The position numbers and the translations under genes are program-made. A stretch of 64,000 bases of DNA, from positions 286 through 64,285 of the forward strand of contig CAWAMU010000017.1 of the NCBI GenBank assembly GCA_963783265.1, given 5' to 3'. Numbering within the stretch: the stretch's first letter is position 1; every line of letters begins with the position of its first letter. The notes under the pieces are model-generated. The model made no database searches, was not told the DNA's origin, and saw only the letters and a program-made list of their open reading frames with translations. The stretch is from an uncultured Alphaproteobacteria bacterium. GTDB lineage: Bacteria > Pseudomonadota > Alphaproteobacteria > Sphingomonadales > Sphingomonadaceae. Below, piece by piece: positions 32,323 to 48,779 of the stretch.

Positions 32323-33352
32323 CTACTTCTCCTGGCCAATCGCGTGCTTCTTCATCGTATGGCGCAACTGGTCATAGGTAAGGCCAAGGGCCTGGGCGGT
32401 CTGGCGCTGGTTCCAGCGATTGGCACCCAGCGCATGTTCGACGATCGACTTCTCGTGATCGTCGACCGCGGCGCGCAAGTCGGTGATGTCGTCCAGCCGC
32501 GGCCGCGGGGCGGACTGCTGGCGCGCCGACTGGCTGGTATTCTCGGCGCCAGCAGGGGTTGCACCGGGCAGCGGTTTCCACGGCGAATCGAACGGGTCGA
32601 ACACGACTTCGCCGATGGGCTGTTCCCAATTATCCCAGCGATAGACCGCGCGCTCCACCACGTTTCGCAGTTCACGCACATTGCCGGGCCAGGGATGGTT
32701 TTCCAGTCCGCGCGCAACATGATCGGCGAAAGCCGGGCCATTCATCCCAGCTCAGCTCTGCGGCCATGCGCCTGCCGAAATAGTCGGCCAGCACGGGAAT
32801 ATCCCCTTCGCGCACGCGCAGGGGCGGCAGGGTGATGACCTCGAATGTCAGGCGGTCGAGCAGGTCGGCACGGAAGGTGCCTTCGTCCGCGCGGCGCGGC
32901 AGGTCTTCATTGGTGGCAGCCACGATGCGCACATCGACGCGGGTCGGTCGACTGGCACCGATGCGCGTAACCTCGCCATATTCCACCGCCCGCAGCAGCC
33001 GTTCCTGGGCGCCCATGGACAAGGTGCCCAGTTCGTCGAGAAATAACGTGCCCCGGTCGGCTTCCTCGAACCGCCCCTCGCGCGCTCTGGTAGCGCCGGT
33101 GAACGCGCCCTGCTCATGGCCGAACAGTTCGGCCTCGATCAGGGTTTCGGGAAGCGCAGCGCAGTTCATGGTGACCAGCGGCTCTTCCCAGCGATCGGAC
33201 AGGCGGTGCAGGCGTTCGGCGATCAATTCCTTGCCGGTGCCGCGTTCGCCGATTACGAGTACCGGGCGCGCCATCGGCGCGGCGCGGCTGGCCCGCTCCA
33301 CCGCATCGAGAAAGGCGCCGGACTGGCCGATGAACTGGTTATCGCGCTCCAT
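32323..33352 (-). CDS. pspF: Psp operon sigma-54 activator PspF (apparent frameshift ~32740)
   Basis: GERGTGKE, GAFTGA, LFLDE, PWPGNVREL and a C-terminal HTH. No N-terminal regulatory domain. Divergent from pspA. Confidence 0.93.
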
Positions 33353-33361
33353 TGCCAAGAT

Positions 33362-33467
33362 ATAGTGCGATTTCCCAACACTTGGCAATAGACACCAACC
33401 ATCTTTTCTCTTTTCTGCGAAAAAACCGCAGGAATCCGCCATTCCTGAAATTTGGCACGGCTGTTGC
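33362..33467 (+). promoter_or_regulatory. Sigma-54 promoter of the psp operon with candidate activator sites
   Basis: TGGCACGGCTGTTGCA at 33452-33467 (GG-N10-GC). Upstream are ATAGTGCGATTTCCCAA (33362) and TTGGCAATAGACACCAA (33382), candidate PspF sites. Confidence 0.85.
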
Positions 33468-33504
33468 AATTCATGGTGTAGAAAGGGTTCAGGAGGAAAA
33501 ACAC

Positions 33505-33657
33505 ATGTTTGATCGCAGCTTCTTCAACAGCCAACTTGGCCAGGCCGCCATGGTTAGCATCGCCGCGATGATCGCCTTCACCATCTTTGCCGGCATGGAG
33601 CCGGTGGCAGACACGCCAGCCATGCTGGTGGGCCTGCCGACGGTGGAACTGGCGTGA
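33505..33657 (+). CDS. 50-aa hydrophobic protein, first gene of the psp operon
   Basis: AGGAGG RBS. MFDRSFFNSQLGQAAMVSIAAMIAFTIFAGMEP..VELA. The stop overlaps GTG 33654. Confidence 0.7.
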   Translation: MFDRSFFNSQLGQAAMVSIAAMIAFTIFAGMEPVADTPAMLVGLPTVELA

Positions 33658-33794
33658 CCGACGAAAACCGCAACCCTTTGAAGCCGCAGGGTAGTGGCAG
33701 GTCTCGCATCGGCTCGCGTCTCGAGAAGGAAATCGAGCGCATCCGCACCAGCCCCACCCCCACCGGCAACTCGCTTAATATCGGAGGACCCTTG

Positions 33795-34502
33795 ATGGGT
33801 ATTTTTTCGCGCACCCGTGACATTATCGCCGCCAACTTCAACGAGCTGCTCGACCAGGCGGACGATCCCTCGAAGATGATCCGCATGATCATCCTCGAAA
33901 TGGAGGAAACGCTGGTGGAAGTCCGGGCGAGCGCTGCTCGCACGATTGCCGACCAGAAGGAAATGCACCGCCACACGGTGAAACTGGACCGGCTCCAGTC
34001 CGACTGGGCAGAGAAGGCGCAACTGGCGCTGAGCAAGGATCGCGAAGACCTGGCCCGCGCCGCGCTGATGGAGAAGCGCAAGTCTTCCGACATGTGCGAC
34101 CAGTTGAAGCAGGAAATCGCCGTACTGGACGATGCCCTGCGCGCCTATGACCAGGACATTACCAAGCTGCAGAACCGCCTGCGCGAGGCCCGCAGCCGCC
34201 AGAGCCAGATATCGGCCCGTCTGGAAAGCGCGGAGAACCGCGTGAAGCTGCGCAGCCTGATGACCAATGAACGGGTGGAAGACGCGCACAGCCGCTTCGA
34301 CCAGCTGGAACGCCGGGTGGATTACGCCGAAGGCCGCGCCGATGCCCTGGGTATCGGCCAGAACAAGGCCACCCTCGCCGACGAATTCGCAGCCCTGGAA
34401 GGCGGCGACAAGGTCGACGACGAACTGGAGGAAATGAAGCGCGCGCTCGGCATGGGAAGCCAGGACAAGGGCAGCAGCGCCAAGACTGAAGAAGGGGAAT
34501 AA
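33795..34502 (+). CDS. pspA: Phage shock protein A (possible upstream in-frame start at 33654)
   Basis: MGIFSRTRDIIAANFN..DPSKMIRMIILEMEETLVEVR..KAQLALSKDREDLARAAL. GGAGG precedes ATG 33795. Confidence 0.95.
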   Translation: MGIFSRTRDIIAANFNELLDQADDPSKMIRMIILEMEETLVEVRASAARTIADQKEMHRHTVKLDRLQSDWAEKAQLALSKDREDLARAALMEKRKSSDMCDQLKQEIAVLDDALRAYDQDITKLQNRLREARSRQSQISARLESAENRVKLRSLMTNERVEDAHSRFDQLERRVDYAEGRADALGIGQNKATLADEFAALEGGDKVDDELEEMKRALGMGSQDKGSSAKTEEGE

Positions 34503-34504
34503 TC

Positions 34505-34807
34505 GTGGACATGGAACCAATTTTCATTGTGTCGGCAATCTTCATCGGATTGCCCTGGGTCGTCCTCCACTACGTGACCAAGTGGAAAACCGCTGCCACC
34601 ATCACCACCGATGACGAGGCTCTGCTGGAAGAACTCTACCAGCTGGCCAAGCGGCTGGACGAACGCATGGATACGGTCGAGCGCCTCGTCTCTTCGGACC
34701 ATCCGGATTTCGAGCCCGCCCGCATCCAGCACGACAAGGCCATCGACAACGTACCGCTGCGCGAGCTGGAGGAACTGCTCGCAGAGAAGAAAGGAAACCA
34801 GGCATGA
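34505..34807 (+). CDS. pspB: Phage shock protein B
   Basis: FIGLPWVVLHYVTKWK..LYQLAKRLDERMDTVERLV..PDF. Confidence 0.9.
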   Translation: MDMEPIFIVSAIFIGLPWVVLHYVTKWKTAATITTDDEALLEELYQLAKRLDERMDTVERLVSSDHPDFEPARIQHDKAIDNVPLRELEELLAEKKGNQA

Positions 34808-35178
34808 ACAGCCCCCGCACGAAACTTTACCGCGACAAGGTGAATGGCAAGCTGATGGGCGTCTGCTCCGGTATCGCCGACTACACCGGCGTAAACGTTC
34901 TCTGGATCCGCCTGGGTATGATCATTCTTGCCATAACCCTCGGCTGGCCCATTCTCGCCTACATCGGCGCAGGCTTCCTGCTGAGCAAGAAGCCGCCACA
35001 TCTCTACACCGCGCCCGATGAAACGCAGTATTGGCAGAACGTCCGGCAGAGCCCGAAGCGTACCGCGCGCGAAATCCGCGCCCGGATGAAGGATATCGAT
35101 CGCCGCCTGGCCGATGTGGAAACCTACTACGTTTCCGCCAATCCGCGCCTGTCGCAGGAAATCGAACAACTGCGCTGA
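34804..35178 (+). CDS. pspC: Phage shock protein C
   Basis: LYRDKVNGKLMGVCSGIADY..IRL..IDRRLADVETYYVSANPRLSQEIEQLR. Confidence 0.92.
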   Translation: MNSPRTKLYRDKVNGKLMGVCSGIADYTGVNVLWIRLGMIILAITLGWPILAYIGAGFLLSKKPPHLYTAPDETQYWQNVRQSPKRTAREIRARMKDIDRRLADVETYYVSANPRLSQEIEQLR

Positions 35179-35212
35179 GGGGCGCACCACACCGAGGAAA
35201 AGGGGACGAAAC

Positions 35213-35522
35213 ATGGGTGAGCTGATTCCCATCGTGGCAATCATCATGGGGTGCGGCATTCCGATCACCGCGATCTGGGCCAAGCACAAGCAGAAGATCG
35301 CCGAGATGCAGGTGGATGCCACCGCCGCCAACACCGCCGAGAAGGCCGCTCAATACGCCAGTCGCACCCAGGAGCTGGAAGACCGGGTCCGCGTGCTGGA
35401 GCGCATCGTCACCGACAAGGGCTACGACATCGCCACCCAGATCGAAGCCCTGCGCGACCAGCGCAGCCGTCGATGAAGGCAACGGCGTTCCCCTCGACAT
35501 CGCTCGCAAGGAGAACGTCTGA
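35213..35522 (+). CDS. psp-array small membrane protein 1 (frameshift ~35465)
   Basis: TM helix then LEDRVRVLERIVTDKGYDIATQIEALR. The alternative-frame tail DEGNGVPLDIARKENV ends in a TGA overlapping the next ATG. Confidence 0.75.
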
Positions 35523-35880
35523 TGGATTGGGGCAGCCCGGAATTCATTATCGCGATCGTCGCCCTGTCCACGCTGGGCTGGATCGTGAACAACTGGATAC
35601 GCGCCAAACACGGCTATCCGCTGGAAGACGAGTGGGGCGGCAAGACGCAGCCGCAAAGACAGCCAGGATGCCGCGAAACTGCGCGAACAGAACCAGCAAC
35701 TGCGCGATGTCATGGAACGGATGGAAGACCGCATGATCGTGCTGGAACGCATCGTCACCGACAAGGGCTACACCGTGGCCGAGGAGATCGAGGCGCTGCG
35801 TGACAAGCCCGCCCGCGAAACCCGCGAAACAAGCGACAATGGCGTGCCCTCTGAACATCAGGAACAGGGAACAGGCATAA
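35522..35880 (+). CDS. psp-array small membrane protein 2 (frameshifts ~35655 and ~35850)
   Basis: MDWGSPEFIIAIVALSTLGWIVNNWIRAKHGYPLEDEWGG..MEDRMIVLERIVTDKGYTVAEEIEALR..DNGVPL. TAATG coupling to the next gene. Confidence 0.7.
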
Positions 35881-36198
35881 TGGATTTCGGATACAATCAC
35901 TCCCGCAGTCCTTGGCGTTGGCGTCATCTCGATTTCGATCGGCTGGGTCGTCAACACGTGGATCCGCGTGAATCACGGCTATCCGCTGGAAAACAGCTGG
36001 GGCAAGGCAGTGTATCCCAAGAACGACCAGGCCGCCGAGCGCGTGAAGCTGCTGACCCAGGAAAACGCGGCGCTTCAGGCTGAACTGGGATCGCTGAAGG
36101 ACCGCCTCGCCAACGTGGAGCGGATCGTCACCGACAGCGGCTATCACCTCACCCACGAGATCGAGAGCCTGCGGAGCGACAAGAAGGACGCGAACTGA
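35880..36198 (+). CDS. psp-array small membrane protein 3 (frameshift ~35890)
   Basis: VLGVGVISISIGWVVNTWIRVNHGYPLENSWGK..LKDRLANVERIVTDSGYHLTHEIESLR. TGATG coupling. Confidence 0.72.
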
Positions 36199-36498
36199 TG
36201 GATATGAACCTGATTGTCATCTTCACCTTCATCCTGCTGGCCGCCGGCCTGGTGTTCGCGATGGCGCACAAGTTTCACCAGCGCACCGTAGAGCATGAGG
36301 AACGCAAGCTGGAACTGAAGGCCCGCATTGCAGAGGCCAAGGCGCAGGAAGGCTGAAGTGCGGCAGGAATTGATGCAATATCTGGAGGACCGGATGCGGG
36401 TGATCGAACGGATCGTGACCGACCCCACGGCCGATCTTTCGCGCCAGATCGAGAATCTGCGCGCAGACGAGGTCGCCCGGCAGGAGAAGGCATCGTGA
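36198..36498 (+). CDS. psp-array small membrane protein 4 (frameshift ~36350)
   Basis: MDMNLIVIFTFILLAAGLVFAMAHKF..YLEDRMRVIERIVTDPTADLSRQIENLR. Not in the supplied ORF track. Confidence 0.7.
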
Positions 36499-44639: not shown

Positions 44640-45257
44640 ATGTGCAACCTGTATCGCATGTCCAGATCGCAGGACGAGGTCGCGCATTTCTTCGATGCAA
44701 TAGCTCAGGATATGTCCGTCGCGCCAGGCGGGAATGCGCCGGAAATGGTCTACCCCGGTTATCCCGGCATGGTGCTGGCGGAGGGCAGGTTGGCGCAAAT
44801 GACCTGGGGCTTTCCTCTCAACCGCACAGGCGCGAAAGGCCAGCCGCTCAAGCCCAAGCCGATCAACAATGCGCGGACGGACAAGCTTTCCAGCGCGTTC
44901 TGGTCCGCCAGTTTCAAGGCGCGCCGCTGCCTCATTCCCCTCTCTGCATTTGCCGAGGCCGAGGGGCCGAAGGGCGGCAAGACCCGTACGTGGTTCAGCC
45001 TGCCGGATAGCGACCTGATGGCCGTGGCCGGGTTCTGGCGTGACAGCGCCGAATGGGGCGAGGCCTATACGATGGTGATGACCGAGGCCTGCATTCACGT
45101 GCAAGGCGTGCATGACAGGATGCCGGTCATCATGCCGCAGTCCGATTGGGAGCAGTGGATGCGGGGAGCGCCCGAAGAGGCCTTCCAGCTATGTCGACCA
45201 TATGGCGGCGAGATGCAGGTAACGCGCACGGATGAGCCGTGGGCCGGTTGGCGGTAG
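44640..45257 (+). CDS. SOS response-associated peptidase (SRAP/HMCES)
   Basis: N-terminal MC, NARTD, RCLIP..FAE, HDRMPVI. Confidence 0.9.
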   Translation: MCNLYRMSRSQDEVAHFFDAIAQDMSVAPGGNAPEMVYPGYPGMVLAEGRLAQMTWGFPLNRTGAKGQPLKPKPINNARTDKLSSAFWSASFKARRCLIPLSAFAEAEGPKGGKTRTWFSLPDSDLMAVAGFWRDSAEWGEAYTMVMTEACIHVQGVHDRMPVIMPQSDWEQWMRGAPEEAFQLCRPYGGEMQVTRTDEPWAGWR

Positions 45258-45264
45258 CGTTCAA

Positions 45265-45362
45265 AGGTTTCGGGGATGTGGTTCTTCGGGGAGGCGGGAC
45301 CGGGAGACTTGGTTGGGGACCATTGGGTCGGTCCCGCCTCGTTCGAAGAACTCTTGGGTACG
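45265..45362 (-). ncRNA. Candidate sigma-54-dependent small RNA (boundaries predicted)
   Basis: Lies downstream of a sigma-54 promoter with no convincing ORF. Forms a long hairpin, 45281-45302 pairing with 45329-45351, with a C-rich 26-nt loop. Confidence 0.4.
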
Positions 45363-45370
45363 CAAACAAC

Positions 45371-45470
45371 ATTGCATGGCCCGTGCCAGTTTGGCCGATC
45401 CACGGATTCCTGCGGTACACGATGGTTCGTGAAACCTTAACGCCGCCAGCTTGTGTCAAGAAATCCGACA
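45371..45470 (-). promoter_or_regulatory. Sigma-54 promoter with candidate enhancer site
   Basis: Minus strand TGGCACGGGCCATGCA (GG at 45387/86, GC at 45375/74). TGTC-N9-GACA palindrome at 45454-45470. Confidence 0.65.
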
Positions 45471-45599: not shown

Positions 45600-46979
45600 A
45601 TGAGCACGATCAACACCATCAACCCCGCGACTGGCAAAAATCTCGACACCTACGAGGAGATTGACCGGGACGCCGCCTATGCGAAGGTCGATGCCTGTCA
45701 CGATGCTTTCACGAAATGGAAGCTGAAATCTGCCGAAGACCGCGCCGAAGTCATCAAGGCTCTCGGCCAGGCGCTGCGCGACAACAAGGAAGAGCTTGCC
45801 CAGTTGATGACCGACGAGGTCGGCAAGCTGATCAAGGATAGCCGCGACGAAGTGGAACTGTGCGCGGCGATCTGCGACTACACTGCGCAAACTGGCCCCA
45901 AGGAGCTTGCCTCGGAGCCGCGCGATCCATCCAATGCAGGCCGCGGCATTGTCGCCTATGCGCCAATCGGTGTGGTTTATGGCATCCAGCCGTGGAATTT
46001 CCCTGCCTACCAGGTGATCCGCTATGCCATCGCCAGCCTGATGGCGGGTAATGGCGTGCTGCTGAAACATGCGTCCAACTGCACGGGCAGCGGCCTGAAG
46101 ATCGCGGAGATTTTCGAGAAGGGTGGCCTGCCCAAGAACCTGTTTACCGTGCTGGTGATCGATCACGATACGTCAGACGCGATTATCGAACACGACAAGG
46201 TGCGCGGCGTTACGCTCACCGGATCCGACACGGCGGGCAAGCATGTCGGCCAGGCCGCCGCCAAGGTGCTCAAGCCTACAGTGCTCGAGCTTGGCTCCAA
46301 TGATGCCTACCTTGTTCTGGAAGATGCCGATCTCGATACCGCTGTGGAGGTCTGTTCGCAGGCCCGACTGTATAACAACGGCGAAACCTGCATCAACGGA
46401 AAGCGCTTTATCGTGACCGAGAAGGTCTACGACAAGTTCCTCGAGAAGTTCGTTGCCCGCTTCGAAGCGGTGAAAACCGGCAATCCTAACGATGAGGACA
46501 CCGATCTTGGCCCGATGGCCCGGACCGACCTGCGCGAAACGGTCCACGAACAGGTGGAAGACAGCGTGAAGAACGGTGCCAAGATCGAATGCGGCGGCAA
46601 GATCCCCGATGGCGACGGTGCATTCTATCCCGCCACGGTCCTTTCCAATGTAAAGCCCGGTCAGCCTGCCTATGACGACGAGATTTTCGGCCCCGTTGCC
46701 TCCGTCATCAAGGCCAAGGATGATGAAGACGCAATGCGCCTTGCCAATGACAGCCGCTATGGCCTTGGTGGCGGTATCCTCTCGACGAACGAGGAGCGCG
46801 CGATCGAACTGGCTTCGAAGCATTTCGACACCGGCATGATCTTCGTCAACGTGTACGGCGTGGCGGATCCCTCGATGCCCTTCGGCGGGGTGAAGAACTC
46901 GGGCTACGGCCGCGAGCACGGCGGTTTTGGCGTGAAGGAATTCGTAAACGTGAAGAGTATCTTCGTCGGCGCTGCCTGA
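45600..46979 (+). CDS. NAD-dependent succinate-semialdehyde dehydrogenase-like ALDH
   Basis: QPWNFP, LTGS, LELGSND, NNGETC, EIFGPV, PFGGVKNSGYGRE. Confidence 0.9.
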   Translation: MSTINTINPATGKNLDTYEEIDRDAAYAKVDACHDAFTKWKLKSAEDRAEVIKALGQALRDNKEELAQLMTDEVGKLIKDSRDEVELCAAICDYTAQTGPKELASEPRDPSNAGRGIVAYAPIGVVYGIQPWNFPAYQVIRYAIASLMAGNGVLLKHASNCTGSGLKIAEIFEKGGLPKNLFTVLVIDHDTSDAIIEHDKVRGVTLTGSDTAGKHVGQAAAKVLKPTVLELGSNDAYLVLEDADLDTAVEVCSQARLYNNGETCINGKRFIVTEKVYDKFLEKFVARFEAVKTGNPNDEDTDLGPMARTDLRETVHEQVEDSVKNGAKIECGGKIPDGDGAFYPATVLSNVKPGQPAYDDEIFGPVASVIKAKDDEDAMRLANDSRYGLGGGILSTNEERAIELASKHFDTGMIFVNVYGVADPSMPFGGVKNSGYGREHGGFGVKEFVNVKSIFVGAA

Positions 46980-48110: not shown

Positions 48111-48332
48111 TCAGTCCGCCAGCAGCCAGATCGCTAGGTAGATGAGGATGAAGGTGCCGAACCCGGCGACCGCACCAACGGCGAAGATGATACGCACGAT
48201 GAGCGGGTCCATCCCAATGTATTTGGCAATACCGCCGCACACGCCGGCGATCTTGCCGTTGGTCTTGTCGAGGCGGAACTTCTTCTGTCCCGACAACCCT
48301 ACGGGATTGTCTCTGCGGTCAAGGTTGCTCAT
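48111..48332 (-). CDS. Stand-alone PspC-domain protein
   Basis: FRLDKTNGKIAGVCGGIAKYIGMDPLIVRIIF..ILIYLAIWLL. Confidence 0.88.
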   Translation of the reverse strand: MSNLDRRDNPVGLSGQKKFRLDKTNGKIAGVCGGIAKYIGMDPLIVRIIFAVGAVAGFGTFILIYLAIWLLAD

Positions 48333-48451
48333 GCCAGCAAGCCTACGACGGTGGTTGCGTGGGGGTTGGCAAAGCTGCTTACCAGCATGGTGAAAGTAAC
48401 GGCCACGGCGGCGAGGCCGGCCATCAGCTTGTTCTGGAATTCGTTGGTCAT
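48329..48451 (-). CDS. 40-aa hydrophobic peptide
   Basis: AAGGAG RBS. MTNEFQNKLMAGLAAVAVTFTMLVSSFANPHATTVVGLLA. ATGA overlap with the PspC-domain gene. Confidence 0.75.
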   Translation of the reverse strand: MTNEFQNKLMAGLAAVAVTFTMLVSSFANPHATTVVGLLA

Positions 48452-48490
48452 TTCAGTCTCCTTGGGTTTGGTGGTGGTTGGTGGTTGGCG

Positions 48491-48619
48491 TCAGGCAAGA
48501 ATGCTGGCGAAGATGCTCGCTTCGGGTGTCGAGAAGCTGCTGACGAGGATCGTGGTGGTCACGATAATTGCCGAAAGAGCAGCGGTGATGCGAGCGGCGA
48601 AGTCATTGGTGAAAGTCAT
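48491..48619 (-). CDS. 42-aa hydrophobic peptide, paralogue of the 40-aa peptide
   Basis: GAGGG RBS. MTFTNDFAARITAALSAIIVTTTILVSSFSTPEASIFASILA. Confidence 0.75.
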   Translation of the reverse strand: MTFTNDFAARITAALSAIIVTTTILVSSFSTPEASIFASILA

Positions 48620-48671
48620 TTTGTTTCCCTCTTGTGTTAGATCGGAACCATTCCGTCCCATGCACCAAACA

Positions 48672-48779
48672 TTGCACAGGGTGTGCCAGTTTTGAAAAAC
48701 GGCGGAATTCTGCCATTCTCGTTCACCAAACAGAAAGGTTGGCTCGAATGCGAAACCGATATGTGGTGAAATTCACCAA
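48672..48779 (-). promoter_or_regulatory. Sigma-54 promoter with palindromic candidate activator site
   Basis: Minus strand TGGCACACCCTGTGCA (GG at 48687/86, GC at 48675/74). TGGTGAA-A-TTCACCA palindrome at 48764-48778 and a half-site GTTCACCAA at 48721. Confidence 0.78.

Follow-up and report, generated by a model that had tools for sequence, protein, structure and literature searches.

Between a SRAP-family gene and an aldehyde dehydrogenase gene, both encoded on the plus strand, the window (the whole stretch of 64,000 nucleotides that was analyzed) contains a spacer of 342 bp with a sigma-54-type promoter that faces left on the minus strand. This raises the question of what is transcribed from this promoter and which regulator controls it. 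The original prediction, made from the letters of the DNA, had offered three answers, namely a sigma-54-controlled sRNA, a gene for a peptide of 20 codons, or the relic promoter of a deleted gene. The first of these has prevailed, as a unit of promoter, enhancer, and hairpin recurs in at least 15 genera, the stems of the hairpin covary, and a transcript is found in a relative. Accordingly, the locus very probably harbors a real sigma-54-type sRNA gene, the features of which are compiled in Table 1.

Table 1. Features of the sRNA locus and of further loci considered in the same genome.
Feature	Position	Strand	Details
SRAP-family gene	44640-45257	+	PF02586, 97.5 bits; convergent with the sRNA
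Aldehyde dehydrogenase gene	45600-46979	+	PF00171
Enhancer (UAS) 17-mer	45469-45453	-	TGTCGGATTTCTTGACA, palindromic; variant of TGTCGG-N5-YT(T/G)ACA
Block between enhancer and promoter	45441-45419	-	GTTAAGG...AACCATCGT; genus-wide form GTTAAC-TTTTCGCCAACCATCGT
Promoter-proximal box	45413-45403	-	GCAGGAATCCG; starts 25 nt upstream of TGGCAC
Sigma-54 -24/-12 promoter	45388-45373	-	TGGCACGGGCCATGCA; one mismatch to TGGCAC-N5-TTGCW
Conserved part of the sRNA	45363-45268	-	bounds from blastn; covariance model R1, 101.7 bits
Main hairpin	45351-45281	-	two stems (next two rows)
Outer stem, 8 bp	45351-45344 paired with 45288-45281	-	GUUCUUCG/CGAAGAAC
Inner stem, 12 bp	45340-45329 paired with 45302-45291	-	GAGGCGGGACCG/CGGUCCCGCCUC
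GUCUCC loop motif	45308-45303	-	invariant or near-invariant in the family (at least 90% in the columns); complement GGAGAC
pspF, frameshifted	33352-32323		in the window
pspA-B-C operon	promoter at 33453		perfect sigma-54 promoter; in the window
Second psp-type operon	promoter at 48688		sigma-54 promoter; two peptides of about 40 aa and a PspC-domain protein
Second sigma-54 promoter with 17-mer	C10 104653-104717	-	42-nt spacer; drives a small membrane protein
17-mer before the epsB2-prsK-prsR operon	C10:829393		65 nt upstream of the operon C10:829328-824464
EpsB_2			TIGR03013, 498.5 bits, cut-off 393
PrsK			TIGR02916, 509.6 bits, cut-off 300
PrsR			TIGR02915, 684.7 bits, cut-off 502.6

The promoter, box, palindrome, and hairpin of the original prediction are all present, with coordinates that are right to within 1 nt. 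The enhancer is located upstream of the promoter, at a distance of 65 nt between its 17-mer and TGGCAC. The conserved block between both elements, to which a related CTTAACCAT block in the second PrsR-box promoter class corresponds, may be the site of an architectural protein. Transcription is predicted to start at about 45362 (+/-2) on the minus strand, which fits the position of the -12 GC with its C at 45374, and the RNA would begin with GCGUACCCAAGA. As had been noted before, no gene led by a ribosome-binding site follows the promoter, and the convergent SRAP gene comes next. The genome encodes six Sigma54_activat proteins and, on C18, the RpoN-box coding sequence ARRTVAKYR, and no sigma-70 promoter was found around the sRNA locus. 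The sRNA promoter is predicted to be sigma-54-dependent. The promoter consensus alone and the 11-mer box alone each occur in the window at chance-level frequency; the conservation of the entire unit and the covariation of the stems, by contrast, greatly exceed what chance would give.

The RNA is composed of a C-rich 5' leader (GUACCC...), the hairpin, and a C-rich tail. Outer and inner stem of the hairpin are separated by an asymmetric internal loop. With an MFE of -40.2 kcal/mol versus -21.6 +/- 3.4 kcal/mol for 200 shuffled sequences (z = -5.4), the hairpin is more stable than any of the latter (0/200 as stable). The apical loop has 26 nt in this genome, with GUCUCC at its end, and is reduced to about 10 nt elsewhere in the family, in which GUCUCC is the sole invariant or near-invariant loop motif. 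The 5' leader G-UACCC(C) and the C-rich tail are also conserved across the family. Of the loop that had been read as anti-Shine-Dalgarno-like, GUCUCC is thus retained family-wide, whereas the additional GGGACC, along with the other pairing proposed for it, is confined to the genus.

In blastn searches with the spacer, the stretch 45443-45283 was recovered with 69-86% identity from all 24 genomes sampled from the same genus, Aurantiacibacter, and no match was found in 16 genomes of other families. The covariance model R1, built from an RNAalifold-supported alignment of 25 sequences from one genus, detects exactly one copy in each of 63 out of 63 Aurantiacibacter genomes, copies in 107 of 151 Novosphingobium genomes, and copies in 41 of 301 genomes of the order, which all belong to one family and to 15 genera, including Novosphingobium, Allopontixanthobacter, Citromicrobium, Pelagerythrobacter, Qipengyuania, and Croceibacterium; as searches covering more than 40 genomes applied strict filters and R1 was derived from one genus, the sRNA is probably more widespread than these counts show. 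The sigma-54 promoter element is kept at 24 of 24 loci of the genus, where the 17-mer and the hairpin are likewise present throughout, and at 22 of 22 distant loci examined, and every copy examined retains a promoter of the form TGGCACG-N4-TGCA and an enhancer of the form TGTCGG-N5-YT(T/G)ACA. An ORF behind the promoter was found in none of the copies examined.

The genes surrounding the sRNA differ between genera. In Aurantiacibacter, the sRNA gene is convergent with the SRAP gene at 18 of 20 loci examined. In other genera, its neighbors are a NUDIX gene in divergent orientation and a gene for a grx4-type glutaredoxin in convergent orientation, and in G046 it adjoins pspF. At the loci examined, the sRNA faces a convergent gene, either SRAP or grx4. 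As there is neither an ORF behind the promoter nor a fixed neighbor, the RNA is not a 5' leader, an antisense RNA dedicated to one neighbor, what is left of a lost gene, or a mere terminator of the SRAP gene. The Infernal/Rfam search that had been suggested at the outset reveals no known family at the locus: with Rfam 15 at gathering thresholds, only two tRNAs are found in the window, and the best E values at the locus with permissive thresholds (1.9-9.4) are far below gathering and at chance level. Literature searches returned no description of such an RNA.

The fold of the RNA is supported by covariation across relatives, which had been proposed as a check of the hairpin. RNAalifold predicts the same two-helix fold with compensatory changes for the alignment of 25 sequences. 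When 84 distinct sequences were aligned independently with MAFFT, 89.3% of the stem cells are paired and changes on both sides occur in 13 of 20 base pairs; for the inner helix alone, 97.9% are paired and seven of 12 pairs covary. All five covariation measures exceed 500 of 500 shuffles and every slid control. In the outer stem, UCUUCG/CGAAGA is swapped for GUCUCG/CGAGAC between clades. Furthermore, G·U cells outnumber A·C cells in the inner helix by 42 to 11, which indicates that the minus-strand RNA is the selected molecule. The covariance model scores 78-102 bits on the true strand versus 27-30 bits on the opposite strand.

The genome of the window is a low-coverage MAG from soil, represented by thin metagenomic DNA runs, and evidence from RNA-seq was obtained from the Novosphingobium homologue L236, a chromosome of 3,979,506 bp with many RNA-seq runs, three of which were used as stranded raw reads. 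For the calibration of strands, the plus-strand genes grx4 and NUDIX correspond to 'first mate on minus' and minus-strand RNA corresponds to 'first mate on plus'. The predicted start in L236 is at 1582, given that the -12 GC has its C at 1594. In all three runs, the depth on the minus strand is about 25x upstream of the start (1580-1669), increases to about 47x at 1570-1579, and reaches about 70x over 1500-1569; a plateau close to 60x extends to 1430, and below 1420 the depth is about 12x. Adapter-flanked fragment ends are located at 1569 and molecule ends at 1424. These data indicate a discrete transcript of about 146-155 nt. Thus, a minus-strand transcript, for which stranded RNA-seq had been suggested, is found in the Novosphingobium relative at the predicted site, and its beginning is equivalent to the start near 45362 that had been proposed for the window. 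At about 70x versus about 1500x for the neighboring grx4, expression of the sRNA is low, which agrees with tight gating of a sigma-54 promoter when inducing conditions are lacking. The relative's RNA runs at contig level are flat, unstranded, and uninformative with regard to the transcription start.

The 3' end of the RNA differs between genera. The transcript in Novosphingobium continues for about 60 nt beyond the hairpin and ends ahead of the coding region of grx4, just before a shared hairpin. In some genera (L106, L107, L111, L114), the RNA is followed by terminators consisting of a hairpin and a T-run. In the window, no intrinsic terminator or T-run was found after the hairpin on either strand. 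With the length of the homologue, the RNA may reach to about 45210 here and would overlap with the last 45 nt or so of the SRAP gene.

Regarding the regulator, the TGTC-N9-GACA palindrome had been proposed to be a sigma-54 enhancer site; this reading is supported and can be refined to the motif of the PEP-CTERM box. The proteobacterial PEP-CTERM box consists of a 17-nt motif 1 ending with TTTACA, a spacer of 62.8 +/- 10.6 nt, and a sigma-54 motif, and PrsR has been predicted to act at motif 1 (Haft et al. 2006, PMC1569441). Later work confirmed that a PEP-CTERM gene depends on RpoN, as well as the epsB2-prsK-prsR arrangement (PMC9850573). With its 17-mer, the 65-nt spacer (compared to about 63 nt), and the -24/-12 promoter, the sRNA promoter fits motif 1 as verbally described, logo aside (PMC1569441), in which the ending TT(T/G)ACA is represented by the TTGACA variant in the window and by TTTACA in most relatives.

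A scan of the genome of the window with the pattern TGTCGG-N4-7-T(T/G)ACA returned six matches, four of which are 17-mers. One of these 17-mers is located in a coding region (C5:134139) and three are intergenic, namely at the sRNA promoter, at the second sigma-54 promoter on C10, and before a three-gene operon on C10. According to NCBIfam, this operon encodes EpsB_2, PrsK, and PrsR, each with a score higher than its curated cut-off, so that the genome resembles known PEP-CTERM-box systems in having these three proteins and the motif at the prsKR operon. The 17-mer of the operon is TGTAAA(G/A)TTTACCGACA, which is the reverse complement of TGTCGGTAAAYTTTACA. Of 16 genomes sampled from the same family, spanning Aurantiacibacter, Novosphingobium, Citromicrobium, and others, 14 keep it at a distance of 69-94 nt upstream of epsB2-prsK-prsR; in L272 the motif differs by one base, and in L274 it is replaced by an oppositely oriented TGTCGGCCAACCTTACA. 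The motif is absent in four genomes of other families. In the genome of the window, it is followed by no obvious sigma-54 promoter, and this site may be autoregulatory. Because the UAS of the sRNA fits the PEP-CTERM box and the same 17-mer is found at epsB2-prsK-prsR across the family, PrsR is, given that the promoter is real, the likely activator; control by some other or by a dual regulator is less likely.

The composite pattern TGTCGG-N5-YTKACA-N35-65-YTGGCAC was searched for in 18 genomes. It has one or two matches per genome in 15 of them, and the reversed pattern, used as a control, has none. The matches always include the sRNA and, in eight genomes, also the gene for a small protein with two TM segments (about 85 aa, MxRKxGRLFVIKTRWEAYLIIYALALGA...). 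This small TM protein at the second PrsR-box promoter has no match in Pfam and NCBIfam. The conserved targets of the composite pattern in the family, the sRNA and the two-TM protein, thus differ from the targets of known PEP-CTERM boxes, and the sole PEP-CTERM protein gene recognized in the genome of the window has no box. The product of the sRNA promoter is a structured RNA instead of a PEP-CTERM protein, and there is no ORF behind it. The promoter would thus function in the manner of PEP-CTERM-box promoters, yet as an atypical member of this group.

In the proposed mechanism, RNA polymerase with sigma-54 would start at about 45362 on the minus strand after activation by an enhancer-binding protein that occupies a site about 65 nt ahead of the -24 element. 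This protein would most likely be PrsR, the response regulator of the PrsK/PrsR system for XrtA/PEP-CTERM (exosortase/exopolysaccharide), and the sRNA would be made upon signaling by PrsK. The exposed GUCUCC, perhaps together with the C-rich leader, could then pair with GGAG-containing ribosome-binding sites, which is the weakest step, and this pairing would adjust the translation or stability of target mRNAs in trans within the envelope/exopolysaccharide program. The entire explanation including control by PrsR can be held with moderate confidence. For the anti-Shine-Dalgarno mechanism as such, the chances are clearly below even. The conservation of GUCUCC suggests that it is a candidate seed for putative action in trans. 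It is a more tentative and rather doubtful idea that the sRNA and the two-TM protein of about 85 aa are the most conserved direct output of PrsK/PrsR in Erythrobacteraceae and Novosphingobium and that the sRNA silences ribosome-binding sites of the GGAG(AC) type upon activation of PrsK.

Target prediction on the loop, which had been recommended as a check, yielded no conserved GGAGAC target. In a target scan of the genome of the window, which combined a search for GGAGAC at start codons with RNAduplex, spurious ORFs dominated and no conserved target emerged. Only two to three genomes share a 7-nt match to the Shine-Dalgarno sequence of the second psp-type peptide, and a 9-nt match, GAGACUUGG, seen by eye in the epsB2 leader, is absent in G016 and G015. 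The missing of a conserved target agrees with an alternative in which the RNA depends on PrsR and sigma-54 as described above and acts without base pairing, either by sequestration of a protein or by convergent transcription against the neighboring SRAP or grx4 gene. This is unlikely, albeit the best of the alternatives. The RNA is always encoded opposite a convergent gene, its hairpin is not followed by a terminator in this genome, and read-through from grx4 covers the sRNA locus on the other strand in L236. However, the convergent partner changes from SRAP to grx4 between clades although the RNA sequence is conserved, and the end of the L236 transcript before the grx4 coding region argues against an effect in cis. 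In addition, an unpaired loop motif of invariant sequence is characteristic of seed regions. Action in trans by pairing of the loop is retained as the preferred, though tentative, mode of action.

A second alternative concerns the activator of the same sRNA, which would be PspF instead of PrsR, so that the sRNA would form a third, non-coding arm of the phage-shock (Psp) regulon. PspF had been the initial working reading; it was demoted by the 17-mer at prsKR, by the commonness of the promoter-proximal box, and by the different UAS of pspA. In the window, the sRNA gene is located between two psp-type sigma-54 operons (33453 and 48688), and in many genera it lies 10-17 kb from pspF. The UAS of the sRNA sometimes has the center GGGAAAT, as in the UAS of pspA. 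Moreover, the sRNA and psp promoters of Aurantiacibacter share the GCAGGAATCCG box at identical spacing: in the window, the box recurs at the same spacing at the psp promoters 33428 and 48688, and all three promoters have GCAG(G/A)AWTCCG exactly 25 nt upstream of TGGCAC. Thus, the shared box is present as originally described, but it is not a marker of a regulon, as boxes of this type also occur at flagellar-region and other sigma-54 promoters. Similar GAAWTC boxes are found at the sigma-54 promoters C2:40079, C18:529050, and C10:104653, and in Novosphingobium at pspA promoters and many sRNA promoters. Within the family, the GAAWTC box belongs to sigma-54 promoters in general and is perhaps an architectural site. 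Further evidence against PspF comes from the enhancers themselves. The UAS of the pspA type has a conserved center with other outer triplets and another spacing (TATAGGGAAATTTCCCACA in the genus, TTAGCGAAATTTCCCATT in Novosphingobium), whereas the UAS of the sRNA conserves the outer TGTCGG and TT(T/G)ACA alone. In addition, the 17-mer of the sRNA type is present at prsKR and not at the psp loci. PrsR is encoded in 222 and PspF in 275 of 301 genomes of the order, and with PrsR in about 96% of the family both are near-universal there, so co-occurrence with the sRNA cannot discriminate between them. All in all, activation by PspF is quite improbable, and PrsR remains the preferred activator.

Little can be said for the possibility that the hairpin is a terminator, perhaps a bidirectional one, of the SRAP gene and that the promoter is the decaying relic of a lost gene. 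The hairpin does lie 24 nt past the stop codon of SRAP, and no gene is present behind the promoter. However, hairpin and promoter are conserved in genera in which the neighbor is not SRAP, the DNA of the locus, at 75-86% identity, is conserved at least as well as the flanking protein, the G·U bias favors the minus strand, a T-run is present on neither strand, and transcription of the homologue begins where predicted. The relic promoter of a deleted gene, one of the three original answers, has to be given up, as a relic would show neither conservation of such depth nor covariation, and this explanation as a whole is very improbable. The gene for a peptide of 20 residues (45323-45261), for which an ATG-led frame of 20 codons exists in this genome, can practically be discarded, since neither start codon nor frame is conserved (the ATG is AAG in L004 and TAG in L005, loop indels are not multiples of three, and the loop is almost deleted in Novosphingobium) and no Shine-Dalgarno sequence is present at a proper distance.

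Among known systems, the sRNAs GlmY and GlmZ of Enterobacteriaceae are transcribed from a sigma-54 promoter that is activated by GlrR/QseF at TGTC-N10-GACA sites, and GlmY acts by sequestration of a protein. The sRNA described here likewise has a sigma-54-type gene with a TGTC...GACA palindrome for an NtrC-family regulator of an envelope-related two-component system. In contrast to GlmY/GlmZ, the palindrome has the spacing N9 instead of N10, regulator family and phylum-level lineage are different, and there is no similarity in sequence or structure and no Rfam match. Other sigma-54-dependent sRNAs are Qrr1-5 (LuxO), CrcZ/CrcY (CbrB), NrsZ (NtrC), and Pxr, which share with the present case the principle of an sRNA gated by an enhancer-binding protein as post-transcriptional output of signaling, but differ in RNA family, regulator, and clade. 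Anti-Shine-Dalgarno sRNAs of Alphaproteobacteria, such as AbcR1/2, have loops of the CUCCCA type. Similarly, the C-rich single-stranded motifs of the sRNA (loop GUCUCC, leader UACCC) could mask GGAG ribosome-binding sites; unlike AbcR1/2, it has no Rfam homology, a sigma-54 instead of a sigma-70 promoter, and a seed of just 6-7 nt.

To our knowledge, sigma-54-dependent sRNAs are few, and each of those known (GlmY, Qrr, CrcZ, NrsZ) is a key output of a signaling pathway. The RNA described here is an uncatalogued family and a probable new member of this group. We know of no RNA member of the PrsK/PrsR (PEP-CTERM/exosortase) regulatory system, and the sRNA is the first candidate for a non-coding member of the PEP-CTERM-box/PrsR regulon. 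If this is true, no riboregulator of the exosortase/exopolysaccharide (floc/biofilm) program would have preceded it. It is a concrete candidate for the way in which PrsK/PrsR reshapes the envelope/exopolysaccharide program, and would offer a compact reporter for PrsK/PrsR activity. With its good covariation and defined promoter, it is also a new structured RNA family for Rfam, and it illustrates that scans for promoter architecture can find real sRNA genes in unannotated MAG sequence. PrsK and PrsR are near-universal in the family, though the genome of the window has one recognizable PEP-CTERM protein.

The 17-mer enhancer element that precedes the sRNA gene is also found 69-94 nt upstream of the epsB2-prsK-prsR operon, where it is nearly invariant across the family (L255-L267 and L273 among the loci from relatives; TGTCGGTAAAYTTTACA in G000, the genome of the window). 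Downstream of this copy, no obvious sigma-54 promoter is present. The element probably represents an autoregulatory site of PrsR. A further copy belongs to a second promoter class, in which the 17-mer is separated from a sigma-54 promoter by a 42-nt spacer. The gene behind this promoter encodes a conserved two-TM protein of ~80-90 aa (153 aa as called in G000) without a match in Pfam or NCBIfam. Homologues of this class occur at L276-L281, L288, L289, and L293, and it is kept in Aurantiacibacter, Citromicrobium, Novosphingobium, and another genus. The sole PEP-CTERM-type protein found in G000 with a C-terminal regular expression (…GAVPEPATWAMMLLGFGFVGGAIRSVKR…) is encoded by an ORF that has neither motif 1 of the PEP-CTERM box nor a sigma-54 promoter within 450 nt upstream.

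Two psp-type operons are encoded in the window. In the first, pspA, pspB, and pspC are preceded by a gene for a 50-aa hydrophobic peptide and followed by genes for several small one-TM proteins with the motif 'LERIVTDKGY' in common. The second encodes two paralogous hydrophobic peptides of 40-42 aa, which are kept genus-wide, and a PspC-domain protein of 73 aa. The pspF gene is broken in two by a frameshift; compared with intact orthologues, residues 1-208 are encoded in one frame and residues 206-341 in another. This is either an assembly error or a pseudogene, which a k-mer depth of about 2-3x is too thin to discriminate. The RpoN ORF on contig C18 appears to be cut short in its reading frame as well. 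As both genes appear broken, the MAG may carry several indel errors.

Sigma-54 promoters that belong to different regulons repeatedly carry a box resembling GC(A/G)GAAWTC(C/G)G, which begins about 25-27 nt before TGGCAC and is found in Novosphingobium, too. This box may have an architectural function, as an IHF-like site.

Coordinates of features in the window and on other contigs (C) of G000
Feature	Position	Strand
Sigma-54 promoter TGGCACACCCTGTGCA with psp-type UAS TTGGTGAATTTCACCA and downstream genes	window 48111-48688	minus
psp operon (50-aa peptide, pspA, pspB, pspC)	window 33453-36200	plus
pspF	window 32323-33352	minus
pspF frameshift	window, near 32729-32736	
17-mer TGTCGGTTTGCCTTACA, 42-nt spacer, sigma-54 promoter	C10:104653-104717 (outside window)	minus
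17-mer TGTCGGTAAAYTTTACA upstream of epsB2-prsK-prsR	C10:829393 (outside window)	
PEP-CTERM-type ORF	C10, ending 742781 (outside window)	minus
GC(A/G)GAAWTC(C/G)G-like box at sigma-54 promoters	C2:40079; C18:529050; C10:104653; window 33428, 45413, 48713	

In the Novosphingobium chromosome with stranded RNA-seq data (L236), at 1397-1420, coverage of the sRNA homologue stops just short of the terminator hairpin of the convergent gene grx4. On the opposite strand, read-through from grx4 spans the entire sRNA locus with a coverage of 80-150x, and sense and antisense transcripts therefore overlap there.
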